Shown piece after piece: positions 28,994 to 48,538 of a stretch of DNA of 64,000 bases. The translations under genes and the position numbers were made by a program. Source of the stretch: Marsupella aquatica (taxonomy: Eukaryota > Plantae > Marchantiophyta); contig OZ316899.1 in the NCBI GenBank assembly GCA_973895155.1, positions 9,050,287 to 9,114,286 on the forward strand, in the 5' to 3' direction. The notes beneath the pieces were generated by a model. It searched no databases, was not told the origin of the DNA, and saw nothing but the letters and a program-made list of their open reading frames with translations. Within the stretch, counting starts at the first letter, position 1; every line of letters begins with the position of its first letter.

Positions 28994-29010
28994 CCCTCCA
29001 TCTAGCGCCA
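28994..29010 (-). promoter_or_regulatory. Element A primer-binding site, tRNA-Asn type
   Basis: TGGCGCTAGATGGAGGG, 4 nt after the 5' LTR; one mismatch to the complement of the plant tRNA-Asn 3' end as recalled (TGGCGCTAGAAGGAGGG). Confidence 0.8.
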
Positions 29011-29799
29011 AAAATGTGGTGCGTCCCATGGCTCCCTAAACCCAAGAAACCCCCCAGCTCAAGCCGATTCCCGCAGGTTTCGTGCTTGGCGAGGCCGTTT
29101 CCGCGGCTTAGCGGCATGGGACGCTGCTAACCTTCTACTACTACTATTAACATTTTACACACATATACTGGACAGATCCTTCATCGGGTCATGAGATACG
29201 TAGCCGGCCTAATATAGGTCTTCCCCTGTCTTCCCCTGTCTTCCCCTCCGTCTTGTTAGGTATGTTTGGATTCCGCCGCCGGAATGATCCCCAATAGGTG
29301 TGACGGGTACCCCGTCACGGGAAGTCACACATAACTGGTTGCAAAGGCCGATACCTTGTTAATAGTCAATGTAAATAAGCCATTTTTTAATTTTTAGTTA
29401 ATTCCGTCATTATAGGTTGATGATGCCCCAGGTGACTTTATATTCTTTCTCTCATAATAGTTCTAAGATTTGCGGCGACCTAAGTGGGCAAATATTTTGG
29501 GACCTTGAAACTAGCCAGGACCAGCCCCATAGGACTTACCGTTTTGCTTCAAGAGCTATTGTTGAGACCCCCATTGCAAAGTCAGGAGAGGGGGGGGTTT
29601 TTTTTTTAAATAAATCCCTCCTCAGGAGGGCGAGTCCCATTAGTGGCCGTCCGAGAGAAAGAGGGGCTGCCTCGCGAGCCCATAGGGCTGCGTGCCCGGG
29701 CGATTAATGGGGCTCCGCGAGCTGAAGGGGCTGCCTCGCGAGCCCATAGGGCTGCGTGCCCAGGCAATTAATGAGGCTCCGCGAGCTGAAGGAGCGCAA

Positions 29800-30033
29800 G
29801 CGAGCGGGGGGGGGGGAGTTAAAGGGCCTCCCGCGAGCTGGGAGGATCACGCGAGCGGGGGGGAGTTAAAGGGCCTCCCGCGAGCTGGGAGGATCACACG
29901 AGCGGGGGGGAGTTAAAGGGCCTCCCGCGAGCTGGGAGGATCACGCGAGCGGGGGGGAGTTAAAGGGCCTCCCGCGAGCTGGGAGGATCACGCGAGCGGG
30001 GGGGAGTTGAAGGGCCTCCCGCGAGCCAGGAGG
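29800..30033 (+). repeat. 47-bp GC-rich tandem repeat, ~5 copies, in B's LTR (second copy at ~40550-40783)
   Basis: Unit gcgagcgggggggagttaaagggcctcccgcgagctgggaggatcac; preceded by two copies of a related ~65-bp unit. Confidence 0.92.
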
Positions 30034-30462
30034 AATGGCCGCGCGCCCTGCATAGGGCCGCGCGCAGGAGGACGCAAGGGTAAGGCCCGAGAAATGGGCC
30101 GGGGCGCATGGCGAAGGCGCCAGGAGTTTTTTCGGTTCTATTTTTTTTTTTTTTCCTTCCTTTTTCTTTCCCTCTTCCTTTTGCACGACCCTCTCATTGC
30201 CGAAAGCAAAAACGGGGTTCTTCTCTCTCTTGCCGGAAGCTCTCTCCAGATTCTAATTATTTTTGAAGCTCTCTCTTTCATGGTGGATTAGTGGGGCTTG
30301 CTGGCGTCATTCTTCCAGGCATTAGTGGCGGCCGCACGGAGTAGTGACGGGAAATTGAGAGAATTTAAGTGATCGGGCTACGGGGGCTGTTTCGGGCCAG
30401 GGAATTGACATTGCCACGGGTGACGGGATTGGTGATTGAGAAATTGATTTCGGGATGCATGG

Positions 30463-32319
30463 ATGCTAGATCAACCAGAGTTTAGTGCGTCACGCATTCG
30501 GAGATACAAGGCTGCTTACCGTGACTACGTGGAGACTCGGATTACACGGGAAAGGGAAGAGAGAGAAGTTATGATGAGCACGGGATTGGCAGCGGGTTCC
30601 TCACCGGTGGGTAGGAAGATTTTTCGTCGAATTTATCCCAAGACCTCCACCAAGGTGATGGAGGATTGTCGGAACATTTTCCAAGCCACCGGGCTTACAG
30701 AATTCATGAAGGTGGAGATTACCATCCCTTCAGGGAAGAGCTGGGACATTGAGGCCGGGATGGAGTTCCGAACGGAGGGAATCTACTTTGAATGTCTCAA
30801 ACGTGTAGTGCCCCATGTGGAGTTGGCTAAGCTATTGTTTCTTGAGAATCAGAAATTCTCATTCACACCTCGGAATATCAGGGGAGAACTCACGTTGAAA
30901 ATGGTGGCCACTTGGGTGACCAATCCTACCTCCACCACCGCCATCCCTCTTTCTGCTGTCAAGGATGTTGAGTATAAGGGCTTCCTGGCCAAGGTGCATC
31001 AACGGGTTCTTGGCAACGTGCAATCCGGAGTGCTGAATGAGGAGCATTTCGTGGTAGCTATGGACATCAAGAACTACCCAGCCCATGTGTACGGATGGTG
31101 GTGCTACGGATTGAAGAAGCTATTGGCCGCTGAGCCCGGGAGTGTGAAACCAGGTGGGGCTGTACATTTGATGGGGTCATTTGTATTGGCCAGGGCAGAA
31201 GGGTTGATTGGTTCTCCGGGGCATGAAGACACGGGATCATCTCTCACCACGGAGATCCGGAGTATTGCCACTACCGTTTTAGGGAAGCTCACGGAGGAAT
31301 CATTGTCTGCTGGTGGGGAGGATAATAGAGAAGAAGAGAACCAGGAGGATGATTGCACATTGGAGTGGCTTGAATCACTCGTGGGAGATCCGAAACAGCC
31401 TCTGGAATACAACATTCCGGATGTTTACTTGGCAGAGCTACGGGATTTCAGAGAGGGAGTCCACGAGGGACTCAAGCTAGTCCACGCATTGAGGGAGTCT
31501 CTCAAGCACGCCACAGTCAAAGTAGAGACGTTAGAGCAGAGCATCCTGTCACTGAAGGAGGTGATCAAGACCAAGGAGCAGACCATTCATGAGAAGGTCA
31601 GGCACATCAATGCAGCTCACGTAGAGATCACCAACTTGAAGGGAGCTTTGTCCACCAAGGCCAAGGAAGCAGAAGAAGTAGGAGCGTTGAGGCAAGCATT
31701 GGCCAAAGAGAAGCAAAATTCTGGAGAAGTGATGGAGTGGAGGAACCAGGTGGGAGCACTACGGAGTCAGGTGGCAGCCTTTGAGACACGAGCGAAGAGA
31801 AGTGAGGCCCTGAGTCTAGGGAAACGGAAGAGTCCCGGCACACCTGGCTCCACACTTTCCCCGGATGTGATCTCCCAAGCTATCGAGATGGTGGTGAAGG
31901 AGGTTAGTGGGAAGTATGGACCCTTGTTGGATGGAGCCAAGAAGAGTCAGGAGAAGAGTAAGAGCTTGGAGAAGAAGCTCCGGGAGGTACGGAAATCGTT
32001 ACGGGAGGCTCAGGTCAGTACGGGGATGCCACCCAGGTCTGTCACCCCCGGGACTCCCATGGCCACGGGGCAAGTTCTACCGTTGGAGTTGCGGTCCGGA
32101 GAAGAGGCTACCCTCTGGAAGGACACAATTGGTGAGGGGTACATCAAGGCGTGGCAGGCCTTGGCTGCTTTGAGGAAGCGCGGGAGCAGCAGCACTAAGA
32201 GTACTCCGTCGAAGAAGAAGAAAAGTACGGTGGCACTCACTCCCGTGAGTGATGAGGAGGAGGACCACTCACGGGGCACAAGTCCGGGCACCGAGAGCGA
32301 AGAAGAAGAGGAGGATTAG
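30463..32319 (+). CDS. LTR-encoded accessory protein of element B (618 aa; globular N-terminal domain, coiled coil, basic NLS-like patches, acidic tail), 5' LTR copy
   Basis: Intact ATG-TAG ORF wholly inside the LTR; identical protein in the other LTR; coiled-coil-like stretch at ~aa 325-445; SKKKKS; ends ESEEEEED. Confidence 0.85.
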   Translation: MLDQPEFSASRIRRYKAAYRDYVETRITREREEREVMMSTGLAAGSSPVGRKIFRRIYPKTSTKVMEDCRNIFQATGLTEFMKVEITIPSGKSWDIEAGMEFRTEGIYFECLKRVVPHVELAKLLFLENQKFSFTPRNIRGELTLKMVATWVTNPTSTTAIPLSAVKDVEYKGFLAKVHQRVLGNVQSGVLNEEHFVVAMDIKNYPAHVYGWWCYGLKKLLAAEPGSVKPGGAVHLMGSFVLARAEGLIGSPGHEDTGSSLTTEIRSIATTVLGKLTEESLSAGGEDNREEENQEDDCTLEWLESLVGDPKQPLEYNIPDVYLAELRDFREGVHEGLKLVHALRESLKHATVKVETLEQSILSLKEVIKTKEQTIHEKVRHINAAHVEITNLKGALSTKAKEAEEVGALRQALAKEKQNSGEVMEWRNQVGALRSQVAAFETRAKRSEALSLGKRKSPGTPGSTLSPDVISQAIEMVVKEVSGKYGPLLDGAKKSQEKSKSLEKKLREVRKSLREAQVSTGMPPRSVTPGTPMATGQVLPLELRSGEEATLWKDTIGEGYIKAWQALAALRKRGSSSTKSTPSKKKKSTVALTPVSDEEEDHSRGTSPGTESEEEEED

Positions 32320-33450
32320 ATAGGCGTACGGACGTGGGTGTACGGCCTCCAGATTTCCAACATTTTAGTGGGGGGTCACTCATGGGCTTGTTGGGATGAG
32401 CTCGCGGAGCTGATTCCAACAAGAGGCGGCGCTCCTCAAACGGAGCCAGGATGAGCAAGTTATGGCCTGGAGAACTTATGTTTTTGCGGTACGGAAACGG
32501 CCATAACTCAGGCGTCTGAAGTCCGTTGAGGGAGCGACTTAGTGATTCGGAAGCAGGAAAAGAAGAGCTATCCAGGGGTGAGCTCAGGTGTGCACTTGGA
32601 AGGGCACCTAGTTTCGGCCATTTTGGGGTGCCTCTCACTTTCAGGGTTCACGTGTACTGTTGGGGCGCCGTCGAAGGCACCGTCGGCCCCCTTGTTTTGG
32701 GTTTAGGGTTTTAGCAGCATGTGTGTGCCGCATGCTCCTCTTCAGTTTAAGGATTTCTCTTAGTGCAAGGTTTTAGCGGCGCCGCTAGGGTAGCCGCCAC
32801 CGTTGTGACCCTGTGAGGGGTGCTTTGGTGTGATTTTTCAGTATTTAGGGGGATAGCCCCGAAGTAGTTAGGGGGACTCAGTGTGAAGTTAGCAAGGAGG
32901 GATAGAGTGGAGCCTGAGGAGTTTGAAAGCGTGTTCAGAGTAGTGAGGGGGAGCCATACTCATTGTCCGGAGAGGCAGGAGTTGAGTAGACGGCAGGAGG
33001 CCGGGTTACTCATGCAATGTGTATCGTTTTTCCCAAGAGATATGGATCTGTACATTTGACTTGATGGGCTTTTGTTGTGTGTTCCTTCTCCCTTTTTCGC
33101 TTTCCGAATTGTGTTCTCCCGTTCTATGATTTGAAGAAACTTGCTTGGTTTGAGTCGGCCTTGTGAGTAGGGGTGGTGACAGCACTCTTTGGGTGACTCC
33201 GAGTGAAGGTGTAGTGGGGTAGTCGGCAGGACTTGATCAAAAGCTGTGGGGTGAGGGTAGTCGGTAGACTTGATCAAAACCTACATTTCCGGGAGCGGAA
33301 ACCAAAATACTCATCCTGGTGTGAAAAGAATCCAAATAGCGTCCCTCCACGACCCCGTAATACGATACCAACGGTTTAAGCGAAGAAAAGTGCGGTTTGC
33401 ACGTATTAACCGTTGGAGAGGCAAGTGACATAAGTGTGGTCTTTTGTTTT

Positions 33451-33468
33451 TGGCGCCGCTGCCGGGGA
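33451..33468 (+). promoter_or_regulatory. Element B primer-binding site, tRNA-Asp (Athila) type
   Basis: TGGCGCCGCTGCCGGGGA, one mismatch to the Athila-type TGGCGCCGTTGCCGGGGA; 20 nt downstream of the LTR end. Confidence 0.85.
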
Positions 33469-33685
33469 ATCCTTCTTCTTGTTTGACGACACGAAGGAGG
33501 GGAGCTACGTCTATTGGGAGTTCAAACCTATCAACCACAACGCAACTTGCGACGGTTGATACGTGAGAAGTTTGTTGGTTACTTTGTTATTGTACGTCAA
33601 CCACAACGCATCGTGCGACGGTTGATGTTTACAAATATTGCTTTCTGAGACATTGGTGTAAGTTTGGAATGCAGGTCTCAATGGG

Positions 33686-36600
33686 ATGCCGAGAGGGAGA
33701 AGGGGAGGTAGAGGAAGTCCCCAACACACACGTACCCCAAGATCAGAGCTAGAAGGGGGGCCCTCTTGGATTGGGACCAGACGACGAGTTGCTGCCGAAG
33801 AACGCTTACGGCTTGCAGAAGAGAGGAGGTTGCCACTGGTGCTGGAAGAACAAGTTGGTGTGCAACAGGAAGAGGCTCAACGTAATGAGGCCATATGCCC
33901 AGACGAAGAGCCAGACATAGATCACGAGCGAGAAGAAGGAGAGCCCTTTGTGTTGGTGCAGTCTGAGTTACAAAATCTGATCCCAGAGCTCACTGCATTG
34001 CCACAAATCATCTCACACCTATCATCGGTGCTGTTACCGGTGGCCCAACAAGCGCCATTACCACCTGTGTTGATACAGGCACCGGCTGCACCGATGGCAG
34101 CTGCACAACGTACCCGTGTTCAGTACGTACCCTTCAAGGGGAGACCAAAGGATGATCCAGACGAATGGATTGAGGAGTTTGAAGGGATTGCCGAAGCTAA
34201 TGGGGAGTCTGCACATAAGCTCACTATCATTCCTGGAATGATGAGAGGGGAGGCAGGTCCATGGTTCATTTCGTTGTTGGCCAACGTGAAAGCTGATTGG
34301 GCTCTGTTCAAGCAAGCCTTCTTGAAGGAGTTCAGATCCATAGGAGTGGAGGCCACCTCACTATTAAAGGTGGGCCAACTCAGGATGAAGAAGAAGGAGT
34401 CATTACGGAGGTTTTTGCAAAGGTTCCAAAAGCTGGTACGTCGGATCCAAGCCCGTACCGATGATGCTATGCGTCAAGCCTGGTTTGTGGCTGCCCTACC
34501 AAGCAAGATGGGGTTCTTTGTACGTCAAGCCAAGCCAACCACATTGGCTGAAGCTATTGCAGCAGCGGAGTCATACACCGCAGCTGATGCCACAAGCAAG
34601 CGTTGCCGAAGAAAGAAGCTGAAGCCGGTTGACAGTTCCTCCAGTGAGGAGTCGAGTGGATCTGATTCAGATAGTAGTGATGAATCTGAGGATTCTGAGA
34701 GTACTACAGAGTCAGACACTACGGAGTCAGAAGCTGAAAGACGAAGGAGGAAGAAGAAGAAGTTGTCAAAGAAAGTCAAGAAGTCCTCTCACCGTGAAGT
34801 GATACTACCCACGGTGGCCGTTACACCATTGTCTACGGCAAGACGCCTGAAGGAGCAAGAGGCCAGATATGATGAGCTGACGGAGCAAATGAAAGCGTTG
34901 AAAGTACATTTTGCCGGACTCAAACCTGAGAGGAGAAAAGTTCCGGTGGAGAGAGCCAATGTGTGGTGCACCAAGTGCATGAAGTTTGGTCATGCCCCGA
35001 AGGAGTGCCCAGCGGGAGAACCAGCCAAGGTTTTCCAAGTACGGGAGGAGGATGTTGAGGGGGCAAGCTACTCAAATCCTTCATATGCAGCGGAAGGGCC
35101 AATAGAGTACTTCATGGAGGAGCCACCAGAGGCCAACGTGTATAGTGTACAACCTCTCAACCCGGGACCACGGAGCATTCATGGAGTTTCAACAAACGCC
35201 GGAGCACCCGCATACTCCAACTATCCCAACGCTAACCCAGGGAATCGACCACCGTACCCTGGAGTGAGGAAGATCCCTATTTGTTACAATTGTAGAGTGG
35301 CGGGCCACTACGCTAATGTGTGCCCAGAGCCCACCCGTCAAGGCAATGGAGATTTTGCCCGGCTGTGTCAACTATGCAAGGGGGAGGGTCATCTTGCACC
35401 ACACTGCCCAACCTTGGAGGCGTTCAAGGCTCAACCGATTGGGGCACAAGAGAAGAAGGGGCCGCCACCTCCTCTGAAAGAAGCTAGCGTCAACTTTCTC
35501 ACCACGGAAGCAGTCGACACCCCTCTAATCACTAGAAGAGAAGAAACCGTAGTGAACATTCCCAAGCAAAGGATGACCACCATAACGGAGGAGGTGGTAC
35601 CGCTAGTCGTTGTAGTATCTCCAGTTGTTGAGATACCGGTGGTTGTTGTTGCAACATCTACGGAAGTTGAAGTTGCTAACCCCTCACCCCCAAGTCATGA
35701 GTGGACTCATGCTGAGAATCTACCGGAGGAAGACAGCGACGAGGAGAGAAGGCATTACTCTTGTTACCGAGTCTCCACTCGATCCGGCAAAAAGAAGGGC
35801 AAGTCCGAGCTCAAGCAGAAGTACAAGGAGGTGCATCAAGCTTCCACATCGGGTACCTCACACGAACCGGAGGTGCCACCCATGGAGGATAGTGACTTTG
35901 ATCGGGACAACCCCAAGTTGTTCTATCCGAAGGTGGGAGAAGAGGTACGTAAGCAGTTGGAGGAGCTAGAAGCACAAGCCATGCAAGCGGCCATTGACAA
36001 AGACATGGAGGAGGCAAAGGCCAGAAAGAAAGCGGAGGAGAGGGTTGTTCGTTGGAAACCGGGAGAAGAGGTCATCCCACCCATACCTCCTGCAACCGCG
36101 TACAACATTGCTCAAGACATTCTGGATTGCCCAGTCAGTGCCACAATTGGTCAACTATTACGGGATAGCTCCCTATACCGTCGCCAAGTCAAGGAGATTC
36201 TCATGAGGAGGAGACGTAGAAGAAGGTTACCCAAAGTTGGGGCTGACCCCATACAAGTCAACTGGGTCACGGAGGATTTGGGTGCCCCAGAACTCACGGT
36301 GGACATCAATGGATGTGCAATACGGTTTGTACCGGTGGACGGGGGCTCGGGAGTCAACATCATGACTGAGGAGACGGCAAACCGGTTGGGGTATACAGAG
36401 TTAGAACCACCGGCACGTGCCATGAGGTTGGCTGATGGTGCACGGGTGGTGCCGTTGGGGTGTCTCACCAAGATTCCAACAATGATTGGGGGAAAATCTT
36501 TCCCCCTCAACTATTTGGTGATGCGACCCGTTCGGCCGTACGGTTTTCCCATTTTAATTGGCAGGCCATGGTTGTATGTGGCCAAGGTCACAAGTGATTG

Positions 36601-39600
36601 GGGCAAACGGCAGTTTCGGTTTGGTATCCCCACTATCACTATTCCATGGTCAGCGGAGTCACCTCACGGGGAGACTACGACTATGGAGGAGGAATATGAT
36701 TCAGAGGTCACCTCAGATGAAGACGAGGATGAAGTATACATGGTGAAACTGATTTCTCACCTCACGGAGGAAGATGTTTTTGGCCCCGGAGTTGCTACTC
36801 AAGAGCATGCAGTAGAGGAATCAGTTAGCCAAGTGCACGCTGTTCTAGAAGAGATGGAAGACGAGCGAAGCAAAATTGTGGAGGCTGAACCTCTAGAGAT
36901 TCATGATAGGGAGGCAGAGGATCACCCCGAGGAGGTGGAAATGCAAGCCCACACGATCATGTTTGATGATGAGCAAAGAGAGCAGTTTTTGAATGACATC
37001 CTGGATGATGACTTTAGAGAGGAGCTATTGTCACATTACAAAGAATCTGACGTTGAAGAAATAATGGCCCATGTGACAAAGGATCCACCTCCATCCCGAC
37101 CAGACCAGGAGGAGAGTGATGCACTGGTGTATGGAGGGATGAGGCTCGCACGGTTGGAAGAAACCTTTGATGAGGAGACACGCAACAAGTTGGACGTGAT
37201 CAGGCCGGAGCAGTACACAAAGGTGGAAGTGGGTGAGGGCAAGACACTCAACATTGGTAGTAAGTTGGATGCTACGGAGCAACGCACGATTCAGGAATTG
37301 TTGAAAGAGTACCAAGACGTATTTGCGTGGAGCCACCAAGATTTGAAAGGAGTGCCACCTGAGTTTGGTGAGCACAGCATTGACCTGATGTCAGGAGCAC
37401 GACCTGTGAGGCAACGCCAATACCGCCTCAACCCCAAATACTCACTCATGGTGAAGGAGGAGATTGACCGTTTGTTGGATGCAGGATTCATTTATCCGGT
37501 CATGCATAGTGAGTGGGTGTCACCCATCGTAATCGTGCCCAAGAAAAAGGGGCCAGACGGGAAGGTGAAAATACGGGTGTGCCAAGATTTTCAAAAGTTG
37601 AATGATGCGACCAAGAAGGATCACTACCCGCTACCGTTCACGGATATCGTGTTGGACATGGTAGCAGGTTGGGAGATATACAGCTTCTTGGATGGCTACT
37701 CTGGGTACAACCAAATCTGGATACGGGAGGAGGACCAACTCAAGACGGCTTTCACAACAGAGTGGGGGATTTTTGCATTCCGGAGAATGCCTTTTGGGTT
37801 GTGCAATGCCCCTGGCATGTTCCAACGGCTCATGATGAATATATTTCATGACTTTTTACGCAGGTTCTTGGAGATCTTTATTGATGACTTTGCTGTCTAC
37901 GGCAAACGAGTCAAGCATCCGGAACACTTACGGTTGACTTTTCAGCGGTGCCGGGAGACTTGCCTGAAGCTGCATCCGGAGAAATGTTTCTTTGGAATTG
38001 AGGAGGGAATCCTATTGGGCCACAAAGTGTCTGCACGAGGGATTGAAGTTGATCGTGAGAAGGTCGCCGTGTGGGTAGCAGTCTCATTTCCCAAGAATGT
38101 GAAGGAAGTGAGAGGGTTCTTGGGGTGTGTTGGCTACTACCGACGCTTCATCAAAGACTTTGCCAAGGTAGCCATGCCACTCACTTCCATGTTGAAAAAA
38201 GGAAGTGAGTTTGAACCTACTCCTTCCCGTCAGGCTGCTTTTGATGAATTGAAGAAACGATTGCTAGAGGCCCCCGTGCTCATTACGCCCAATTGGAATA
38301 AGGAATTCCATGTTTACGTAGACGTATCAGGATTTTGCATCGGTGCCGTTTTGAGTCAGTTAGATGATGATGGAAGAGACCATCCCATCTACTTTGCCAG
38401 TAGGCAGTTGGCCCCGGCAGAGAAAAACTACTCACCCACCGATAGGGAGGCACTTGGTATCATCTACGCTTGTAAGAAGTATCGTCATTATTTGTTGGGG
38501 TACAAGGTTGTGTTCCACACGGATCACAACAGCTTGAAATACATGGTCAACAAGCCAGATCTGTCCGGGAGAATTGCACGTTGGGTTTTGTTGCTACAAG
38601 AGTTCAACTATGAGGTGAGAGTAAGATCGGGGAAGAGTCATAGCAATGCAGACTTCTTCTCCCGTATTGAGGGAGCATCTGACTCCCAGGAGATTGATGA
38701 TCGGTTCCCGGATGAGGAAGTGTTCAGCGTGAATACAGAGGCCACTACTTGGTATGGAGAAATTTTGGAATTTCTCCGCACGGCTAGAGTTCCCTCACGT
38801 TTGGGCCCGGAGAGAGCAGCAGTGTTTTTGCGTAAGACAGGTCCCTACTTGCTTGTGAAGGGAGTACTTCACAAGTACGGCATGGATGGCCGACTTCGTC
38901 GTTGTTTGGAGGAAGCGGAGATACGTACAGTCATGGCAGCATTACATGAGGAGGAAGCTGGTGGCCACTTTGCACGGGAGACCACCGCAAGGAAAATACT
39001 AGATGCTGGATATTGGTGGCCAACTCTCTTTCGGGATGTACACCGGTACATCCAGCGATGTGATCCGTGCCAGCGTCAAGGCAAACCAGGGCCCTCCTCA
39101 CGACACCCATTGGTGCCCATACTTCCTCTTGCACCCTTTGAGAAGTGGGGGGTGGACTTCATTGGCCCTTTCACTCCCATCACACGAAGAGGGAGGAAGC
39201 GCTACATCATTCTTGCAACGGACTATGCCACCAAGTGGGTGGAGGCCCGAGCTACTGCCAAGGATGATGCCAACACCACGGCACGTTTTTTGTATGAGCA
39301 GATTTTTACACGATTTGGTCCACCATTGGAGTTGGTAAGTGACAGGGGTACTCACTTCCTCAATCATACGATTGAACGTTTGACGGAGAACTACTTGATC
39401 TCACATAGGAAGACCACTCCGTACCACCCTCGAGCCAACGGGCTCACTGAGAGAGCCAACGGGATCATGGGCAAGATCCTCAACAAAACGGTATCCGCTC
39501 ACAAGACCGATTGGGATTTGAAGTTGTTGGCTGCCACTTACGCTTACAACCTGGCTCACAAGACTACCACGGGCCACAGCCCCTATTTCCTTGTGTTTGG

Positions 39601-40084
39601 ACAACACTCTCTTGTGCCGGTGGAATTTGAGGTTCCAACCATTCGAATCCTAACACGGGAAAGGGAAGGGGCAGAAGAAAGTGTCGCTTCACGGATCCAA
39701 CAGTTGGAGCAACTCACGGAGACACGAGAAGAGGCTTTGACACATACGGAGCAGGAGCAAGGCAAACGCAAGTCACATTACGATTCCCGTCTCCGTCGTG
39801 TGTCCATTGAGGAGGGAGATTTGGTGCTCCTCTACGATAGCCGCTTCATGCATTTCCCCGGGAAGTTGCATACACGGTGGATGGGACCCTACGTAGTGGA
39901 TGCCGTCTACTCCAACGGCTCGGTTCAACTCAAGACATTGGAGGGGCAACTACTCAACACACGGATCAATCAAGAGCGCCTAAAGAAGTACTACACGGAG
40001 GAAGAGTATGGTGCTCGCGGGGGCGCTTCGCAATTAAGAGAGGAGCTATGTGACGGGTACCCCGTCACGGGAAGTCACACATAA
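33686..40084 (+). CDS. Element B Gag-Pol polyprotein (2132 aa): Gag, 3 CCHC knuckles, aspartic protease, RT, RNase H, integrase
   Basis: Single ORF. CTKCMKFGHAPKEC, CYNCRVAGHYANVC, CQLCKGEGHLAPHC; VDGGSG; LDGYSGYNQI...MPFGLCNAP...FIDD; VYVDVSGF; KWGVDFIGP...SDRG...NGLTER; WMGPY. No chromodomain or second RNase H seen. Confidence 0.98.
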   Translation: MPRGRRGGRGSPQHTRTPRSELEGGPSWIGTRRRVAAEERLRLAEERRLPLVLEEQVGVQQEEAQRNEAICPDEEPDIDHEREEGEPFVLVQSELQNLIPELTALPQIISHLSSVLLPVAQQAPLPPVLIQAPAAPMAAAQRTRVQYVPFKGRPKDDPDEWIEEFEGIAEANGESAHKLTIIPGMMRGEAGPWFISLLANVKADWALFKQAFLKEFRSIGVEATSLLKVGQLRMKKKESLRRFLQRFQKLVRRIQARTDDAMRQAWFVAALPSKMGFFVRQAKPTTLAEAIAAAESYTAADATSKRCRRKKLKPVDSSSSEESSGSDSDSSDESEDSESTTESDTTESEAERRRRKKKKLSKKVKKSSHREVILPTVAVTPLSTARRLKEQEARYDELTEQMKALKVHFAGLKPERRKVPVERANVWCTKCMKFGHAPKECPAGEPAKVFQVREEDVEGASYSNPSYAAEGPIEYFMEEPPEANVYSVQPLNPGPRSIHGVSTNAGAPAYSNYPNANPGNRPPYPGVRKIPICYNCRVAGHYANVCPEPTRQGNGDFARLCQLCKGEGHLAPHCPTLEAFKAQPIGAQEKKGPPPPLKEASVNFLTTEAVDTPLITRREETVVNIPKQRMTTITEEVVPLVVVVSPVVEIPVVVVATSTEVEVANPSPPSHEWTHAENLPEEDSDEERRHYSCYRVSTRSGKKKGKSELKQKYKEVHQASTSGTSHEPEVPPMEDSDFDRDNPKLFYPKVGEEVRKQLEELEAQAMQAAIDKDMEEAKARKKAEERVVRWKPGEEVIPPIPPATAYNIAQDILDCPVSATIGQLLRDSSLYRRQVKEILMRRRRRRRLPKVGADPIQVNWVTEDLGAPELTVDINGCAIRFVPVDGGSGVNIMTEETANRLGYTELEPPARAMRLADGARVVPLGCLTKIPTMIGGKSFPLNYLVMRPVRPYGFPILIGRPWLYVAKVTSDWGKRQFRFGIPTITIPWSAESPHGETTTMEEEYDSEVTSDEDEDEVYMVKLISHLTEEDVFGPGVATQEHAVEESVSQVHAVLEEMEDERSKIVEAEPLEIHDREAEDHPEEVEMQAHTIMFDDEQREQFLNDILDDDFREELLSHYKESDVEEIMAHVTKDPPPSRPDQEESDALVYGGMRLARLEETFDEETRNKLDVIRPEQYTKVEVGEGKTLNIGSKLDATEQRTIQELLKEYQDVFAWSHQDLKGVPPEFGEHSIDLMSGARPVRQRQYRLNPKYSLMVKEEIDRLLDAGFIYPVMHSEWVSPIVIVPKKKGPDGKVKIRVCQDFQKLNDATKKDHYPLPFTDIVLDMVAGWEIYSFLDGYSGYNQIWIREEDQLKTAFTTEWGIFAFRRMPFGLCNAPGMFQRLMMNIFHDFLRRFLEIFIDDFAVYGKRVKHPEHLRLTFQRCRETCLKLHPEKCFFGIEEGILLGHKVSARGIEVDREKVAVWVAVSFPKNVKEVRGFLGCVGYYRRFIKDFAKVAMPLTSMLKKGSEFEPTPSRQAAFDELKKRLLEAPVLITPNWNKEFHVYVDVSGFCIGAVLSQLDDDGRDHPIYFASRQLAPAEKNYSPTDREALGIIYACKKYRHYLLGYKVVFHTDHNSLKYMVNKPDLSGRIARWVLLLQEFNYEVRVRSGKSHSNADFFSRIEGASDSQEIDDRFPDEEVFSVNTEATTWYGEILEFLRTARVPSRLGPERAAVFLRKTGPYLLVKGVLHKYGMDGRLRRCLEEAEIRTVMAALHEEEAGGHFARETTARKILDAGYWWPTLFRDVHRYIQRCDPCQRQGKPGPSSRHPLVPILPLAPFEKWGVDFIGPFTPITRRGRKRYIILATDYATKWVEARATAKDDANTTARFLYEQIFTRFGPPLELVSDRGTHFLNHTIERLTENYLISHRKTTPYHPRANGLTERANGIMGKILNKTVSAHKTDWDLKLLAATYAYNLAHKTTTGHSPYFLVFGQHSLVPVEFEVPTIRILTREREGAEESVASRIQQLEQLTETREEALTHTEQEQGKRKSHYDSRLRRVSIEEGDLVLLYDSRFMHFPGKLHTRWMGPYVVDAVYSNGSVQLKTLEGQLLNTRINQERLKKYYTEEEYGARGGASQLREELCDGYPVTGSHT
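37016..37028 (+). promoter_or_regulatory. Candidate central polypurine tract of element B
   Basis: 13-nt exact copy (agagaggagctat) of 40037-40049, at ~52% of the element length. Confidence 0.6.
40032..40048 (+). promoter_or_regulatory. Element B polypurine tract (aattaagagaggagcta), inside the integrase coding end
   Basis: Abuts the 3' LTR start at 40049. Confidence 0.85.
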
Positions 40085-43000
40085 CTGGTTGCAAAGGCCG
40101 ATACCTTGTTAATAGTCAATGTAAATAAGCCATTTTTTAATTTTTAGTTAATTCCGTCATTATAGGTTGATGATGCCCCAGGTGACTTTATATTCTTTCT
40201 CTCATAATAGTTCTAAGATTTGCGGCGACCTAAGTGGGCAAATATTTTGGGACCTTGAAACTAGCCAGGACCAGCCCCATAGGACTTACCGTTTTGCTTC
40301 AAGAGCTATTGTTGAGACCCCCATTGCAAAGTCAGGAGAGGGGGGGGTTTTTTTTTTAAATAAATCCCTCCTCAGGAGGGCGAGTCCCATTAGTGGCCGT
40401 CCGAGAGAAAGAGGGGCTGCCTCGCGAGCCCATAGGGCTGCGTGCCCGGGCGATTAATGGGGCTCCGCGAGCTGAAGGGGCTGCCTCGCGAGCCCATAGG
40501 GCTGCGTGCCCGGGCAATTAATGAGGCTCCGCGAGCTGAAGGAGCGCAAGCGAGCGGGGGGGGGGGAGTTAAAGGGCCTCCCGCGAGCTGGGAGGATCAC
40601 GCGAGCGGGGGGGAGTTAAAGGGCCTCCCGCGAGCTGGGAGGATCACACGAGCGGGGGGGAGTTAAAGGGCCTCCCGCGAGCTGGGAGGATCACGCGAGC
40701 GGGGGGGAGTTAAAGGGCCTCCCGCGAGCTGGGAGGATCACGCGAGCGGGGGGGAGTTGAAGGGCCTCCCGCGAGCCGGGAGGAATGGCCGCGCGCCCTG
40801 CATAGGGCCGCGCGCAGGAGGACGCAAGGGTAAGGCCCGAGAAATGGGCCGGGGCGCATGGCGAAGGCGCCAGGAGTTTTTTCGGTTCTATTTTTTTTTT
40901 TTTTTCCTTCCTTTTTCTTTCCCTCTTCCTTTTGCACGACCCTCTCATTGCCGAAAGCAAAAACGGGGTTCTTCTCTCTCTTGCCGGAAGCTCTCTCCAG
41001 ATTCTAATTATTTTTGAAGCTCTCTCTTTCATGGTGGATTAGTGGGGCTTGCTGGCGTCATTCTTCCAGGCATTAGTGGCGGCCGCACGGAGTAGTGACG
41101 GGAAATTGAGAGAATTTAAGTGATCGGGCTACGGGGGCTGTTTCGGGCCAGGGAATTGACATTGCCACGGGTGACGGGATTGGTGATTGAGAAATTGATT
41201 TCGGGATGCATGGATGCTAGATCAACCAGAGTTTAGTGCGTCACGCATTCGGAGATACAAGGCTGCTTACCGTGACTACGTGGAGACTCGGATTACACGG
41301 GAAAGGGAAGAGAGAGAAGTTATGATGAGCACGGGATTGGCAGCGGGTTCCTCACCGGTGGGTAGGAAGATTTTTCGTCGAATTTATCCCAAGACCTCCA
41401 CCAAGGTGATGGAGGATTGTCGGAACATTTTCCAAGCCACCGGGCTTACAGAATTCATGAAGGTGGAGATTACCATCCCTTCAGGGAAGAGCTGGGACAT
41501 TGAGGCCGGGATGGAGTTCCGAACGGAGGGAATCTACTTTGAATGTCTCAAACGTGTAGTGCCCCATGTGGAGTTGGCTAAGCTATTGTTTCTTGAGAAT
41601 CAGAAATTCTCATTCACACCTCGGAATATCAGGGGAGAACTCACGTTGAAAATGGTGGCCACTTGGGTGACCAATCCTACCTCCACCACCGCCATCCCTC
41701 TTTCTGCTGTCAAGGATGTTGAGTATAAGGGCTTCCTGGCCAAGGTGCATCAACGGGTTCTTGGCAACGTGCAATCCGGAGTGCTGAATGAGGAGCATTT
41801 CGTGGTAGCTATGGACATCAAGAACTACCCAGCCCATGTGTACGGATGGTGGTGCTACGGATTGAAGAAGCTATTGGCCGCTGAGCCCGGGAGTGTGAAA
41901 CCAGGTGGGGCTGTACATTTGATGGGGTCATTTGTATTGGCCAGGGCAGAAGGGTTGATTGGTTCTCCGGGGCATGAAGACACGGGATCATCTCTCACCA
42001 CGGAGATCCGGAGTATTGCCACTACCGTTTTAGGGAAGCTCACGGAGGAATCATTGTCTGCTGGTGGGGAGGATAATAGAGAAGAAGAGAACCAGGAGGA
42101 TGATTGCACATTGGAGTGGCTTGAATCACTCGTGGGAGATCCGAAACAGCCTCTGGAATACAACATTCCGGATGTTTACTTGGCAGAGCTACGGGATTTC
42201 AGAGAGGGAGTCCACGAGGGACTCAAGCTAGTCCACGCATTGAGGGAGTCTCTCAAGCACGCCACAGTCAAAGTAGAGACGTTAGAGCAGAGCATCCTGT
42301 CACTGAAGGAGGTGATCAAGACCAAGGAGCAGACCATTCATGAGAAGGTCAGGCACATCAATGCAGCTCACGTAGAGATCACCAACTTGAAGGGAGCTTT
42401 GTCCACCAAGGCCAAGGAAGCAGAAGAAGTAGGAGCGTTGAGGCAAGCATTGGCCAAAGAGAAGCAAAATTCTGGAGAAGTGATGGAGTGGAGGAACCAG
42501 GTGGGAGCACTACGGAGTCAGGTGGCAGCCTTTGAGACACGAGCGAAGAGAAGTGAGGCCCTGAGTCTAGGGAAACGGAAGAGTCCCGGCACACCTGGCT
42601 CCACACTTTCCCCGGATGTGATCTCCCAAGCTATCGAGATGGTGGTGAAGGAGGTTAGTGGGAAGTATGGACCCTTGTTGGATGGAGCCAAGAAGAGTCA
42701 GGAGAAGAGTAAGAGCTTGGAGAAGAAGCTCCGGGAGGTACGGAAATCGTTACGGGAGGCTCAGGTCAGTACGGGGATGCCACCCAGGTCTGTCACCCCC
42801 GGGACTCCCATGGCCACGGGGCAAGTTCTACCGTTGGAGTTGCGGTCCGGAGAAGAGGCTACCCTCTGGAAGGACACAATTGGTGAGGGGTACATCAAGG
42901 CGTGGCAGGCCTTGGCTGCTTTGAGGAAGCGCGGGAGCAGCAGCACTAAGAGTACTCCGTCGAAGAAGAAGAAAAGTACGGTGGCACTCACTCCCGTGAG

Positions 43001-44181
43001 TGATGAGGAGGAGGACCACTCACGGGGCACAAGTCCGGGCACCGAGAGCGAAGAAGAAGAGGAGGATTAGATAGGCGTACGGACGTGGGTGTACGGCCTC
43101 CAGATTTCCAACATTTTAGTGGGGGGTCACTCATGGGCTTGTTGGGATGAGCTCGCGGAGCTGATTCCAACAAGAGGCGGCGCTCCTCAAACGGAGCCAG
43201 GATGAGCAAGTTATGGCCTGGAGAACTTATGTTTTTGCGGTACGGAAACGGCCATAACTCAGGCGTCTGAAGTCCGTTGAGGGAGCGACTTAGTGATTCG
43301 GAAGCAGGAAAAGAAGAGCTATCCAGGGGTGAGATCAGGTGTGCACTTGGAAGGGCACCTAGTTTCGGCCATTTTGGGGTGCCTCTCACTTTCAGGGTTC
43401 ACGTGTACTGTTGGGGCGCCGTCGAAGGCACCGTCGGCCCCCTTGTTTTGGGTTTAGGGTTTTAGCAGCATGTGTGTGCCGCATGCTCCTCTTCAGTTTA
43501 AGGATTTCTCTTAGTGCAAGGTTTTAGCGGCGCCGCTAGGGTAGCCGCCACCGTTGTGACCCTGTGAGGGGTGCTTTGGTGTGATTTTTCAGTATTTAGG
43601 GGGATAGCCCCGAAGTAGTTAGGGGGACTCAGTGTGAAGTTAGCAAGGAGGGATAGAGTGGAGCCTGAGGAGTTTGAAAGCGTGTTCAGAGTAGTGAGGG
43701 GGAGCCATACTCATTGTCCGGAGAGGCAGGAGTTGAGTAGACGGCAGGAGGCCGGGTTACTCATGCAATGTGTATCGTTTTTCCCAAGAGATATGGATCT
43801 GTACATTTGACTTGATGGGCTTTTGTTGTGTGTTCCTTCTCCCTTTTTCGCTTTCCGAATTGTGTTCTCCCGTTCTATGATTTGAAGAAACTTGCTTGGT
43901 TTGAGTCGGCCTTGTGAGTAGGGGTGGTGACAGCACTCTTTGGGTGACTCCGAGTGAAGGTGTAGTGGGGTAGTCGGCAGGACTTGATCAAAAGCTGTGG
44001 GGTGAGGGTAGTCGGTAGACTTGATCAAAACCTACATTTCCGGGAGCGGAAACCAAAATACTCATCCTGGTGTGAAAAGAATCCAAATAGCGTCCCTCCA
44101 CGACCCCGTAATACGATACCAACGGTTTAAGCGAAGAAAAGTGCGGTTTGCACGTATTAACCGTTGGAGAGGCAAGTGACA
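40049..44181 (+). repeat. Element B 3' LTR (4133 bp)
   Basis: Direct repeat of 29299-33430, followed by TSD ATAGG. Confidence 0.98.
41214..43070 (+). CDS. LTR-encoded accessory protein of element B (618 aa), 3' LTR copy
   Basis: Translation identical to 30463-32319. Confidence 0.85.
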   Translation: MLDQPEFSASRIRRYKAAYRDYVETRITREREEREVMMSTGLAAGSSPVGRKIFRRIYPKTSTKVMEDCRNIFQATGLTEFMKVEITIPSGKSWDIEAGMEFRTEGIYFECLKRVVPHVELAKLLFLENQKFSFTPRNIRGELTLKMVATWVTNPTSTTAIPLSAVKDVEYKGFLAKVHQRVLGNVQSGVLNEEHFVVAMDIKNYPAHVYGWWCYGLKKLLAAEPGSVKPGGAVHLMGSFVLARAEGLIGSPGHEDTGSSLTTEIRSIATTVLGKLTEESLSAGGEDNREEENQEDDCTLEWLESLVGDPKQPLEYNIPDVYLAELRDFREGVHEGLKLVHALRESLKHATVKVETLEQSILSLKEVIKTKEQTIHEKVRHINAAHVEITNLKGALSTKAKEAEEVGALRQALAKEKQNSGEVMEWRNQVGALRSQVAAFETRAKRSEALSLGKRKSPGTPGSTLSPDVISQAIEMVVKEVSGKYGPLLDGAKKSQEKSKSLEKKLREVRKSLREAQVSTGMPPRSVTPGTPMATGQVLPLELRSGEEATLWKDTIGEGYIKAWQALAALRKRGSSSTKSTPSKKKKSTVALTPVSDEEEDHSRGTSPGTESEEEEED

Positions 44182-44186
44182 ATAGG

Positions 44187-47100
44187 CTTGGTTAAGCCGC
44201 TAAGACCTCTCTCAGCTCGACACATCCAACTCTCACTCCCCTGCTTACTTTCCTTCCTTCTGTTGATGTGGGCACTCTTCACACAAGTTAATGCGACACA
44301 CAAATAGCAAAATGACTCATTCTGACTGAGTCATACCATGCACTTGCCATACAAACAGTACATCTCATACACCAGTTCTGCGAACTAAGCCGTGAGGCCA
44401 ACTCTATTCAGCTCTTAGGCATGAGGAAACATGAATATACACAAGGGTCACTGTATGACTAACCGAGAGCTTCTCGTACTACTTGATCCCAGCCCGGCTG
44501 GTGCAAACTAAAAACTTGCTAAAGAAGAGGCCCTGAGCTCCCCGCTGCCCAGGTACTTATCCTGGTAGTGGATCCGCCATTCTTTGCATCGTAAGCCTAA
44601 TCTACCTGACAGTAATCTACTTGCCCGAATCTACCTATGTACAGCAAGGCAGGAGCACAAGTGTTGCTCCTACCAGTGGAACCGCAATCCCACTAAGCTA
44701 AGTGTCAGGGCCGCTCCTGGTTCTAATCCTAATCCTAAACGTGGAGATCCGCGCCCGCCCTGCCCACTCACGCCTCCTCCCTCCACGTCCGCCCTCCCTA
44801 AAAGGAACGGCGCCCTTGCACCGTCACGACACCGGTGGTGGATCCTCAATGGACGCCCCCAACACTTCCCCCTCAGCCACTGCCGTTGGCCCGCCTACTG
44901 ACAGATTACCTGCCCTTGACCGAGTCAACTCTCCCTCGGCCTGACTGGGTCCACCTTCGGCTTCAGCCTCGACACCGGCCTCGGCAATACCCACGGCTTC
45001 GGCCTCAGCCACTCCCACGGCTTCGGCTTCCCCTTCCCCTAGGGTAGTTGGATCCTTAGCCGTGACCCTGTCTGGGGTCGGTGCTGGGTCTACCTCCTTG
45101 ATCACCACGGCCTGTGAAGTCGTATTACTCCTTGACCTTGAAGGTTTCCGCTTCTTCTTCGTTGGTGGCTCGGCATCTGGTCCCTTCCCCTTCCCACTTA
45201 CTTCCGGCACTGGTGCAGGTGGCGCGGCCTGTCCTTCGGCAATTACCACCCCTGGTAACTGGTTTGTCCCAACGGGAGATGGACCTGCTGCAGCTAAGCA
45301 TTTAAATACTGCGGCTTGTTTCTTCAGCCGCTCAGTTTGGTTGTCGGCCCGCCGCTGTAGGTTCTCCATCTTCCTCGTGATTTCCTCCAACTCCTCTTGG
45401 GTTTCATCCAGGTCCTTACGTGCTCCCTCCAGCTCGTTTTTGGCCTCCTCCTGCTCCCTGTGGGCTTCCTCCAATTCCTTCTTCAAGGTAGCCCTCTCCT
45501 CCTGGGTTGCTCTTAGCTCCTTGTCGAGCTCTGCAATGATGACAGACTCCATCTGATTCATCTTGGCGTAAGTCTGTTCGAGCATCTCGTCCTTCTCCCT
45601 TAGGTCGGCCTTGAAGCTGGCCGTCAGGGACGCAAGCTCCTGCTGCAGCGCCATAATCCCTTGATAGGATTTCCCTAACTCGGCCTCCTTCTGCTCAAGG
45701 GCTCCGCGGATTTTCTCGAGCTCCCCTTTCAACGCCCATTCCTTTCTTTGGGTCTCCGCCATGGCCCGGCTGTTGGCTGTTATGTGGGCCTCCTCTGTAT
45801 TCTTCAACTCTTGCTTCCACTTCTCCCTCTCTTTGATCGTGTCGGCCAACTCTTCCTGCGTCTGAGTCAGTTTATCCTTGATATTCTGATTATCAGCCTG
45901 CGCGGTGTCCAACTGCCCCTGCATGATGTTCAGCTCATGTCGTTTAATCCGCAGTTCATCTTGGGCTTTCTTGGCCGCCCTTAGATCTTCAATCTCGGCT
46001 TCCATCCTCCTAAGCCGCCGAATGACCTCGTCCTTCTTGCTTCTCTCTAAAGCCACCGCTTCTTCTAATTGGTGCTTCTCCAACTGCTCCCTATGGAAAA
46101 AGGGTCCTACCTCCAACTCCTCTCCAAAGATGCCGAGCGCAAGTTCCCCACACATCTCACCATACTCCATGGCTCTATTCTTAGCATAGGTGGAGTAAGT
46201 AGAAGTGATCGGCATCGCCCATCGTGGCCTCTGCTCCCAAGCCGTCCTGCGGATCTCTTCAATCGTGGCTAGAGGTTTGCTTCCTTTTTCGGCTAGCCGC
46301 CTGATGTCCTCCGGCCAATCTCCTCCTGGTAAATCCTTTTCCTTAGCCAGGGCGGCCTCCTCTTCCTGCTTGATTCGCTCCTGAAATTCCTGCACCGTCT
46401 GTTTTATGCCGTCGAAGCTCGGGGGGGCAACGTCTGGTGGGGGAGACTCAGGGCTACTCTGCTGGTTGGGGTCCCCTCGCACTACCCTTGGAAGTGTGGG
46501 GACAAACCGGCCACAGGTCCTTACTCCTGGAACGTGATGGTCCGACCCATAGCCAGAATTATCATGGCTGCAGTCCTCCACTGCCTCCTCTACCTCTTGG
46601 ACGTCCGGCTTCTCCCTCTCCTCTTCGTCGGTAGGAGCTTCAGGCAATTCTGCCTCAGATTCGGAGCTTGAGGTTCCCACGTACATTCGAACACCTGGCT
46701 TGGATTTCGGCCTGATTCTCTCCTTGTCTCCAGCAAAGGGGTTTTCTCTTGTGAGCCGGTGTAGGCCTACCTCTGTAGTAGTGTCCTGCATTGTTGCCGT
46801 TGCCGTTGTTGTTGTCGATGCCAATTTCTTTTCTTTCTCCAGTAGTTTCAGCAGACTCTGCATGCCTGGTTGCTGCATCGGCAAGTCCTCCTTCCTGGGC
46901 CTAAACACCTGCTCGATCGTAGGACTAACAGGTGGTTGAGGCTTCTCAGCCAACGGCCTCGGCGTTGGAGCTTCCTCGGGTGCCCTTACCTGCAGGGGAA
47001 GTACCGGGGCAAAAGTCTGACCTCTGGCATACCGGCACAACAGCGGCATGTGATAGCCAAGCCGCGACACGCTCCCCATGCCGATTACCTGCTGCTCCTC

Positions 47101-48538
47101 CTTCAAGATCTTCTTCAATTGGTTGAGGAGGTACCCGTTGTAGTCCCGGCTTGGGTCTGGCCTTTCTGCCAGATAGACCTGTGCCTTGCCGATCTCTGCC
47201 CTCGGCAAGTTACAATGCATGGTCACCCGCAAGAAGTCGATCATCTCTCCTATGTGCGGGTTGGTGCAGGTGTTCCGGAAGAAGCCATTCTTCGTTGATG
47301 GCCCGGGGAACGACCGGAACTCCTTGTCAGGCAAGGTCTTCCTGGTATCAACTTTGGTCTTATTGCCTATCGGCAGGCCAAACACTTCGGCAATTACCTT
47401 GGGAGTAAGATAGAAATCCTTCCCATATATCCTCGTGCAATTGGTCTCGGGTTCCCATGACCCCACGAATTCTAATAGGTCTGACTCCGGTACCTCCGGC
47501 TTCAGCCATGGTAATCTTACAAAGGCCTCCAAGCCGGATCCGGCCATGAAGCCTTGGTACTTCTTGGTCTGCATGGCCGTAAAGCATGCATCCTCCTCCC
47601 GTGCAAAATGTAGTTGCACCTCCACCGGTAGGGTTGCCGCCCAGCCCTTCCAGGTGTCATCCCTGGTTGGAATGGCCTTGATGGGATCGACCTCCTCTTC
47701 TTCGGCTTCTCCCTGCCTCCTGCTCTGCTGCTCGGCTGGCTTCTTTGGTGCCGCCGATCACGTTCTTTTTGCCGGGGTGGCTTCATCGTTGACGGCTCCC
47801 TTCCTCTTCATCTCTGCTGCCGTGGAGGTTTCTCCTAGCACCGTTGCCTGGGTCCACCTTTCCGTGCTACCCTTTAATTCCCAGTGTATGTCGTTGCAGT
47901 TCTTGATGGCCTCTCGGATGCCGACGACGCTGTCTTTGCAAAACAGAAGATCGTCGAGTTGATTGGAAGTAGGCGTCCACAGGAACTCGTCCTTGATGAG
48001 TTCGCCTCCTAAGAAAGCCGTCTTCTGCAGCTCCCACAATCGAGCGAGCTCCTGCCGTTCTCTAGCTGCCCTTTCTGATTCCTCGTCCTCGTAAGTCTTG
48101 ATGTACTCAGTTGCCCGTTCGAACAGGCATCCCCAGAAATGTGCCGCTTGATTGACGTTGCTCATACCCTCCTTAGGTTGATCGTCGGTATCTACTCTCT
48201 CCCCGAGTGCTTGCCTAAGCAGCTGACAGTAGTTGGCCTCCCGTAGTCGTCTGCCTAGTTCGTGCTCGCAAATGAGCCACTATTTCCTGCAAGCGCTCCT
48301 TACCCCTCTCCTTTGCCGGTCCTTCTTCCCGTTGATCCTTCCTAGCCACCGACGCTTAACGCGCCCTAACCCTAATCGGGTTTTCACCCTTAGCCTTACC
48401 TCCGGCCTCGGCCCGGGTTCCATGGTTGCCCCTAATTGTTTATATTTTCCTTGTTTTGTCACTATACTAAGGTGTTCCTAGGGTGCCTTCCTGCTTTACC
48501 CACTTAACCGGCCGAGTGATTCCTGTCTAGGCATCACA
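44187..48538 (-). repeat. Element A 5' LTR, main part (remainder at 29015-29298)
   Basis: Continues A-LTR sequence exactly after B's TSD. Confidence 0.97.
44824..47625 (-). CDS. LTR-encoded accessory protein of element A (5' LTR copy)
   Basis: 933-codon frame with six amino-acid differences from 19079-21880; same upstream in-frame stops. Confidence 0.75.
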   Translation of the reverse strand: MEVQLHFAREEDACFTAMQTKKYQGFMAGSGLEAFVRLPWLKPEVPESDLLEFVGSWEPETNCTRIYGKDFYLTPKVIAEVFGLPIGNKTKVDTRKTLPDKEFRSFPGPSTKNGFFRNTCTNPHIGEMIDFLRVTMHCNLPRAEIGKAQVYLAERPDPSRDYNGYLLNQLKKILKEEQQVIGMGSVSRLGYHMPLLCRYARGQTFAPVLPLQVRAPEEAPTPRPLAEKPQPPVSPTIEQVFRPRKEDLPMQQPGMQSLLKLLEKEKKLASTTTTATATMQDTTTEVGLHRLTRENPFAGDKERIRPKSKPGVRMYVGTSSSESEAELPEAPTDEEEREKPDVQEVEEAVEDCSHDNSGYGSDHHVPGVRTCGRFVPTLPRVVRGDPNQQSSPESPPPDVAPPSFDGIKQTVQEFQERIKQEEEAALAKEKDLPGGDWPEDIRRLAEKGSKPLATIEEIRRTAWEQRPRWAMPITSTYSTYAKNRAMEYGEMCGELALGIFGEELEVGPFFHREQLEKHQLEEAVALERSKKDEVIRRLRRMEAEIEDLRAAKKAQDELRIKRHELNIMQGQLDTAQADNQNIKDKLTQTQEELADTIKEREKWKQELKNTEEAHITANSRAMAETQRKEWALKGELEKIRGALEQKEAELGKSYQGIMALQQELASLTASFKADLREKDEMLEQTYAKMNQMESVIIAELDKELRATQEERATLKKELEEAHREQEEAKNELEGARKDLDETQEELEEITRKMENLQRRADNQTERLKKQAAVFKCLAAAGPSPVGTNQLPGVVIAEGQAAPPAPVPEVSGKGKGPDAEPPTKKKRKPSRSRSNTTSQAVVIKEVDPAPTPDRVTAKDPTTLGEGEAEAVGVAEAEAVGIAEAGVEAEAEGGPSQAEGELTRSRAGNLSVGGPTAVAEGEVLGASIEDPPPVS

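Follow-up and report, generated by a model that had tools for sequence, protein, structure and literature searches.

A 618-residue gene inside both long terminal repeats of a young Ty3/gypsy retrotransposon in the liverwort Marsupella aquatica

Why would a retrotransposon carry a complete protein-coding frame inside each of its long terminal repeats (LTRs), is such a frame a real gene, and what might its product do? These questions are raised by a 64,000-nucleotide stretch of the liverwort Marsupella aquatica (assembly GCA_973895155.1, contig OZ316899.1, positions 9,050,287 to 9,114,286 of the forward strand; hereafter the window, whose numbering is used throughout). It contains, at 29299-44181 on the plus strand, an LTR retrotransposon of about 14.9 kb that is inserted in an LTR of a second, related element; we call the two the inner and the outer element. 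Two open reading frames (ORFs), at 30463-32319 and 41214-43070 (+), lie wholly inside the respective LTRs of the inner element, in sense orientation, and encode identical proteins of 618 amino acids, as an earlier reading of the sequence alone (the original prediction) had stated.

The inner element and its LTR-borne gene

The inner element is an intact, very recent Ty3/gypsy retrotransposon. Its 5' LTR (29299-33430, +; 4132 bp, TGT...ACA) and 3' LTR (40049-44181, +; 4133 bp) align over their full length with four differences, namely three substitutions and a poly-T run that is one T longer in one of them (0.07% divergence). These fall at LTR positions 464, 730, 842 and 3285, and the ORF (LTR 1165-3021) is free of them. 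The element is flanked by the target site duplication (TSD) ATAGG (29294-29298 and 44182-44186, +). A single gag-pol ORF of 2132 amino acids (33686-40084, +) has domain matches to gag, zinc knuckle (zf-CCHC), protease, reverse transcriptase (RT), RNase H and integrase, and its stop codon lies 36 bp into the 3' LTR. The polypurine tract (PPT; 40030-40048, +) is embedded in the end of the integrase frame, immediately 5' of the 3' LTR, and a sequence resembling a primer binding site (PBS; 33451-33468, +) begins 20 nt beyond the end of the 5' LTR. The assignment to Ty3/gypsy follows from the two LTRs, the TSD, the PPT, the PBS-like site and the order gag-protease-RT-RNase H-integrase. The intact Gag-Pol, the roughly four LTR differences counted by eye and the very recent insertion, as given in the original prediction, are borne out by this analysis.

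Several observations on the sequence and its variants indicate that the 618-residue ORF is a genuine gene and that purifying selection acts on it across the copies of its family. Firstly, its 623-codon stop-free run has a chance probability of about 4e-10 at the local base composition, and its codon-position pattern is that of the other coding frames. Secondly, four sequencing runs from two studies, mapped to the ORF at 80% likeness, gave 254 variants, and selection statistics were computed on the 40 best supported of them. Twenty-one of these 40 leave the protein unchanged, 19 alter a residue and none introduces a stop codon; the synonymous share expected from the same mutation spectrum is 29.5% (p=0.002), which corresponds to an omega of about 0.38, only a rough value because the variants come from several subfamilies and perhaps from related species as well. 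Within codons 1-260, seven of ten variants are synonymous (omega about 0.17), as are 14 of the 30 that fall after codon 260 (p=0.04). The original prediction had proposed a dN/dS comparison across copies, with neutral evolution as the outcome that would count against it; purifying selection is what the comparison returned. Thirdly, indels keep the frame. The one indel listed from this mapping is of 3 nt, and among 12 listed of 74 indels both of those in the ORF are of 3 nt, whereas none of the six in the non-coding part of the inner LTR is a multiple of three.

Sequencing depth bears on the number of LTRs per element. In run X1, possibly from the source sample, one 2444-bp contig spans the entire ORF at a depth of 270 and five near-exact internal contigs stand at 131-160; run X3, which belongs to a different study, has LTR contigs at 1524-1664 and internal contigs at 687-724. 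The LTR-to-internal ratio in these two runs is therefore 1.7-2.4, where elements with two LTRs each and few solo LTRs should give 2; contig depth is not copy number, so that the ratio is a hint (depths in run X2 are too scattered for a ratio, and run X7 contains little of the element). With a ratio of about 2, solo LTRs look rare in the young subfamily, which speaks against the earlier emphasis on solo LTRs as places where the gene survives. The label "mobile gene cassette" has to be dropped as well, since a solo LTR is not mobile alone and would be a left-behind gene copy. The same ratio, together with the TSD and the PPT, argues that the 4-kb repeats are not an assembly artefact, as had been anticipated. 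The dominant subfamily is near-invariant, its 2444-bp contig covering the ORF at high depth. Joints that bypass the whole inner element reach a depth of 2298 in X1, which shows that the host LTR has many copies free of the insertion.

The surroundings of the gene within the LTR have a distinctive composition. GC-rich tandem arrays (64 bp x2.0 and 47 bp x4.8), a candidate binding or enhancer array, lie 5' of the gene in the 5' LTR (29662-30034, +), and the same arrays recur in the 3' LTR (40412-40784, +). Judged by composition, a pyrimidine-rich stretch (30099-30298, LTR 801-1000, +) 5' of the gene is a candidate leader or intron of the 5' untranslated region, and a T-rich stretch (32999-33198, LTR 3701-3900, +) 3' of it is a candidate 3'-end or poly(A) region. 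The LTR would accordingly hold a cassette that runs from GC-rich arrays through a pyrimidine-rich leader and the ORF to a T-rich 3' region. No canonical TATA box was found in the inner LTR. G-box-like and telobox-like words occur at LTR 3351 and 3406 and could mark a second promoter, for genomic RNA.

The outer element and the placement of both

The same layout occurs in the outer element (18168-48538, -; TSD CCCCA at 18163-18167 and 48539-48543), one LTR of which is interrupted by the inner element. Its 3' LTR spans 18168-22793 (-, 4626 bp), and its 5' LTR is severed by the inner insertion into a 3' end at 29015-29298 and a main part at 44182-48538 (both -). An LTR-borne frame of 1,150 codons, sense to the outer element, is present in the 3' LTR (19079-22534, -) and again in the main part of the 5' LTR (44824-48279, -); it consists of 173 codons, one in-frame TGA and 977 open codons. 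Gag (27611-28945), the protease region (25955-27514) and the RT-RNase H-integrase frame (22782-26048) together occupy 22782-28945 (-), and the pol stop lies 12 bp into the LTR. The PPT is near-identical in the two elements and sits within the last integrase codons of each, and neither element has an internal region between pol and LTR. Identity between the two is 66.5% across 2154 bp of pol and 74% for the RT-RNase H protein. Between the outer LTRs there are 14 substitutions and one indel of 10 bp (0.30%, compared with 0.07% for the inner pair); the outer element is therefore the older one, in agreement with the nesting.

Several features of the outer element stand beside this comparison. The internal TGA of the LTR-borne frame (22013-22015 and 47758-47760, -) is common to both LTRs and was therefore already in the RNA template; it reflects either a mutant copy still able to transpose, or two genes, or readthrough. 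The polyprotein is in three pieces, with a stop after gag, the protease region in the same frame and RT-RNase H-integrase in an overlapping frame, an arrangement that may represent programmed readthrough plus frameshift, or decay. One outer LTR (29218-29247) has three copies of a 10-bp unit of which the other has two, a difference due to slippage. A word-index protein search with residues 1-250 of the 916-residue outer protein found no relative among 1270 candidates. In the flanks, three pairs of repeats of 82-89% identity (15256-16202/63014-63959, 54851-55699/60376-61735 and 16423-16756/52641-52967) are probably older element ends or fragments.

The two elements also differ in the position of the PBS-like sequence, which lies 20 nt after the TSD-fixed LTR end in the inner element (33431-33468) and behind a 5-nt spacer (29010-29014) in the outer one. 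Self-priming was rejected as the cause of the 20-nt offset, the complementary match in the LTR being just 8 nt long, which is at chance level. The PBS-like sequence is presumably of the tRNA-Asp/Athila type; a tRNA gene search of the window found none.

The closest named relatives of the RT-RNase H region are from Riccia (up to 66% identity) and Marchantia (up to 57%), and metagenome proteins reach 82-83%. A quick, midpoint-rooted tree of this region was built without classified references from 52 rows, namely the two elements and 50 others hand-picked from 120 listed. It places both elements with Riccia and metagenome rows (SH-aLRT 99), separate from angiosperm rows (100), and so points to a liverwort or another bryophyte as the likely host, in accordance with the source of the DNA. 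Locus searches with RT-RNase H returned none in the genome_contigs or viral_contigs sets. Among known lineages, a chromovirus was rejected, no chromodomain family appearing in the Pfam matches at E up to 0.1, and so was a Tat element with an aRH domain (TatI-III, Ogre, Retand), neither element having a PF13456 match. Tat clusters without aRH, Z1 and Z2, do exist (PMC10508981). Phygy and Selgy, which the table in PMC6317226 gives as short, with a 4-bp TSD and no extra ORF, are ruled out by the 5-bp TSDs, the 14.9 kb and the extra ORF. The 5-bp TSD, the single gag-pol ORF and the absence of aRH and chromodomain matches agree with the entry for Athila in the same table. Since the tree holds no classified references, Tat Z1 and Z2 included, and Tat clusters without aRH exist, the placement stops here, and we leave the inner element as an Athila-like non-chromovirus.

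Comparison with known systems underlines what is unusual in this arrangement. Athila elements (ATHILA PF03078; Transposase_32 PF20167) share with the inner element, besides the features just named, a size in the same range (PMC6317226) and an accessory ORF 3' of pol with a coiled coil and a fold that is likely, by prediction, to be related. They differ in that the ORF here lies inside the LTR and is present twice, no internal region separates pol from the LTR, the protein has no Pfam match to the Athila domains, and RT-RNase H groups with Riccia and metagenome rows, apart from the angiosperm rows. The Tat elements Retand and Ogre (TRP28 PF04195, PMD PF10536) likewise have family-specific tandem arrays beside an accessory ORF (PMC11963269, PMC6317226), in Retand within the 3-6.5 kb that separate pol from the 3' LTR (PMC11963269). 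In those elements the module lies internally, mostly in antisense orientation, and the LTRs of Retand measure 315-1194 bp; here the module is sense, lies within a 4.1-kb LTR and comes without an aRH match. The rice elements Retrosat2, RIRE3 and FRetro3 have LTRs above 3 kb and an extra, fast-evolving ORF0 (PMC3485330), but this source places ORF0 5' of gag-pol, single and apart from the LTR, and does not describe it as LTR-duplicated. The extra ORFs of plant retrotransposons are described as internal in PMC7264820. In the literature covered, which is incomplete, the sag gene of mouse mammary tumour virus (MMTV) was the sole clear case of an LTR-borne ORF. Like the frame described here, sag is a complete ORF in the LTR at both ends, with its own promoter in U3 (PMC9412291); it belongs to a retrovirus and encodes an unrelated protein, whereas the product here has 618 residues and the position of its gene in U3 is a probable one. 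Within this incomplete coverage, no plant retrotransposon was found described as having a complete gene in each of its LTRs, and an earlier account may exist.

The protein and its possible role

The 618-residue protein has an N-terminal helix (9-40), a conserved globular domain (about 57-241), an acidic linker, and a coiled coil (about 320-451 and 467-520), followed by a basic patch (KKKK at 584) and an acidic tail; the acidic stretches cover 246-320 and 576-618. In AlphaFold models the long helices 320-451 and 467-520 have a pLDDT of about 70-80 in their cores, and in Pfam the protein has just weak coiled-coil matches. Its basic patches are, from their sequence, possible nuclear signals. Six homologues over the N-terminal domain, at 30-59% identity, came from a full HMMER search of 1.84 billion representatives with residues 1-276. 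One of them, P0121, has the same start and is without the last third of the N-terminal domain. Another, P0125 (596 residues; E 2.5e-11 over residues 57-229), has a coiled coil after the domain, hence the same plan, and is 28% identical to the 618-residue protein over 189 residues. The only metagenome locus that the ORF alignment retrieved (L001) was rejected as an unrelated frame that matches over 21 residues only. A word-index protein search found no relative of the 618-residue protein among 7994 candidates scored, and a PDB sequence search gave no usable match.

The fold lead comes from P0125. With the Atlas model of its residues 1-210, eight of ten rows are streptophyte clusters, at TM 0.56-0.66 over 172-183 residues, and the structural matches include Transposase_32, ATHILA, PMD and DUF1985 clusters. 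From this model of the homologue, the N-terminal domain of the 618-residue protein is likely PMD/Athila-ORF1-like. The structure search suggested in the original prediction gave this lead for the homologue, at a level below naming; the models of the protein itself are too poor. With the low-confidence N-terminal model, Foldseek and VIA-align gave no usable match, and a comparison with VANC21 matched the first helix alone, with no Z of 5 or more. The PMD, ATHILA ORF1 and Transposase_32 profiles of Pfam had no match at E up to 5 in the N-terminal part, P0121, P0125 or part of the outer ORF.

If the protein resembles VANC, a binding word might be expected in its own element, VANC proteins being known to bind short family-specific words that accumulate in tandem repeats (PMC5735166). 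Counted over one LTR and the internal region, the inner element has 14 copies of the word CGCGAGC. Twelve of them are within the arrays, where the word is part of both repeat units; the outer element and 33.6 kb of flank have none. ATGCCGA has 13 occurrences in the outer element, one in the inner and none in the flank. Against a shuffle null that keeps the protein, the codon use and the junction dinucleotides, ATGCCG ranks second in the outer gag-pol and replicates in the outer LTR ORF (8 occurrences against 2.0 expected, 0 of 1000 shuffles); the inner element shows no enrichment of it, and the outer gag-pol words ranked first and third failed to replicate. Words containing GCCGA are enriched throughout the outer element (18168-29014), coding sequence included (ATGCCGA 13, AAGCCG 31), and are rare in the inner element and the flanks.

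The explanation that we favour, and to which we give an even chance of being correct, is that the 618-residue protein is a VANC-like, self-protecting chromatin factor that counters silencing. Because in both elements pol ends within the LTR and the end of integrase contains the PPT, the region that once separated pol from the LTR was likely absorbed into the LTR. Plus-strand priming would have shifted upstream to the end of pol, so that the arrays and the accessory ORF became U3 and were from then on copied to both ends at every reverse transcription. This history is the simplest one; its direction is what we infer, no relative with an internal module having been retrieved. The gene would then have its own promoter near the arrays, comparable to the U3 promoter of MMTV sag, and use the poly(A) region of the LTR; by this analysis it probably lies in U3, with R as the alternative. 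Its N-terminal domain would be PMD/Athila-ORF1-like, a group structurally related to VANC, and the coiled coil would oligomerise the protein. VANC itself is structurally homologous to MAIN, and a coiled-coil pentamer is predicted for VANC as well as for the Athila domain (PMC13547354). Finally, the protein would bind a family-specific word, CGCGAGC being the candidate, and lower methylation or repressive marks on the copies of its family in trans. The likeness to the VANC proteins of VANDAL Mutator-like DNA transposons thus lies in being transposon-encoded, in a predicted MAIN/PMD kinship and coiled-coil oligomer, and in words within tandem repeats (PMC13547354, PMC5735166); the difference is that VANC belongs to a eudicot DNA transposon and has a proven function, whereas here the carrier is a retrotransposon and both fold and binding are predicted. 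More tentatively, we suggest that a liverwort Ty3/gypsy lineage moved its accessory module to the LTR and now carries fast-diverging, family-specific VANC-like genes, each with its own word (CGCGAGC in one family, ATGCCG/AAGCCG in the other).

A number of results weigh against this explanation. For the fold, the AlphaFold models have a mean pLDDT of 44 and, for the N-terminal domain, 41, and give no direct evidence; no Pfam family reaches the cut-off for the 618-residue protein; all Atlas structure rows are below the naming bar, and the link passes via a homologue of 28% identity; the closer homologue, P0121, has only weak zf-BED-type feature hits (0.83); and the LTR proteins of the inner and the outer element have no detectable similarity on comparison. 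For the words, the enrichment of CGCGAGC is mostly tandem duplication (12 of 14), and once the arrays are masked no word is significant in the inner element; under the shuffle null the best dispersed word, ACGGGA, has a corrected p of 0.20 in gag-pol and a marginal p of 0.043 in the ORF. The CpG observed/expected ratio is 0.58-0.87 in the element and 0.51-0.62 in the flanks, similar or slightly above. Moreover, the PMD-fold proteins MAIN and MAIL1 also act in host silencing (PMC5418596), so that the fold leaves the direction of the effect unfixed. The anti-silencing role guessed in the original prediction fits, indirectly, the predicted fold of P0125 and is a possible one.

The selection on the gene and its location are equally compatible with a gene of the same origin acting at another step of the life cycle, in integration targeting, nuclear import, or RNA export or packaging, an explanation that we regard as quite possible, short of an even chance. 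Nuclear accessory roles have been proposed for the extra ORFs of plant elements (PMC7264820, PMC11963269), and the weak dispersed-motif signal in the inner family also speaks for this explanation. A targeting factor could also explain the insertion into the LTR of a relative, but one nested insertion demonstrates no preference; in addition, the fold lead is to chromatin-acting PMD/VANC-like domains, and the family-specific words are reciprocal between the two elements.

That the protein is an ordinary transcription regulator of its own LTR, an activator or an agent of negative feedback that leaves silencing marks untouched, seems improbable. The tandem arrays are in an enhancer position, directly 5' of the gene, and the acidic stretches 246-320 and 576-618 would suit such a regulator, but the enriched word of the outer family, instead of being limited to a promoter, is spread across coding sequence. 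That the protein is env-like or serves cell-to-cell movement is very unlikely: a sense ORF 3' of pol is in the position of env-like ORFs (PMC7264820) and the coiled coil is long, yet the highest 19-residue Kyte-Doolittle means are 1.09 for the 618-residue protein and 0.98 for the outer LTR protein, which leaves no transmembrane or other hydrophobic segment in either. A non-functional passenger kept open by the youth of the family, which the near-invariance of the dominant subfamily might suggest, or an artefactual pair of 4-kb repeats, is largely refuted and scarcely credible given the synonymous excess and frame-keeping indels in diverged copies, the homologues at 30-59% identity, the TSD, PPT and depth ratio, and the recurrence of the layout in the outer element, whose RT-RNase H is 74% identical.

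Meaning for retrotransposons and early-diverging land plants

LTRs are usually treated as non-coding; in the two related families described here, coding sequence makes up about 45% of the LTR in one and about 75% in the other, and the boundaries of LTRs can evidently move across a whole gene. The inner element, intact and recently active, offers a means of testing the role of PMD/Athila-type accessory ORFs, a long-open question. If the VANC-like reading, that is, sequence-specific anti-silencing, is true, the gene and its binding array would be doubled at every insertion and left in any solo LTR, and each pair of protein and word could be considered as a tool for targeted demethylation. The VANC strategy would then extend to retrotransposons and to early-diverging land plants, far outside the eudicots.

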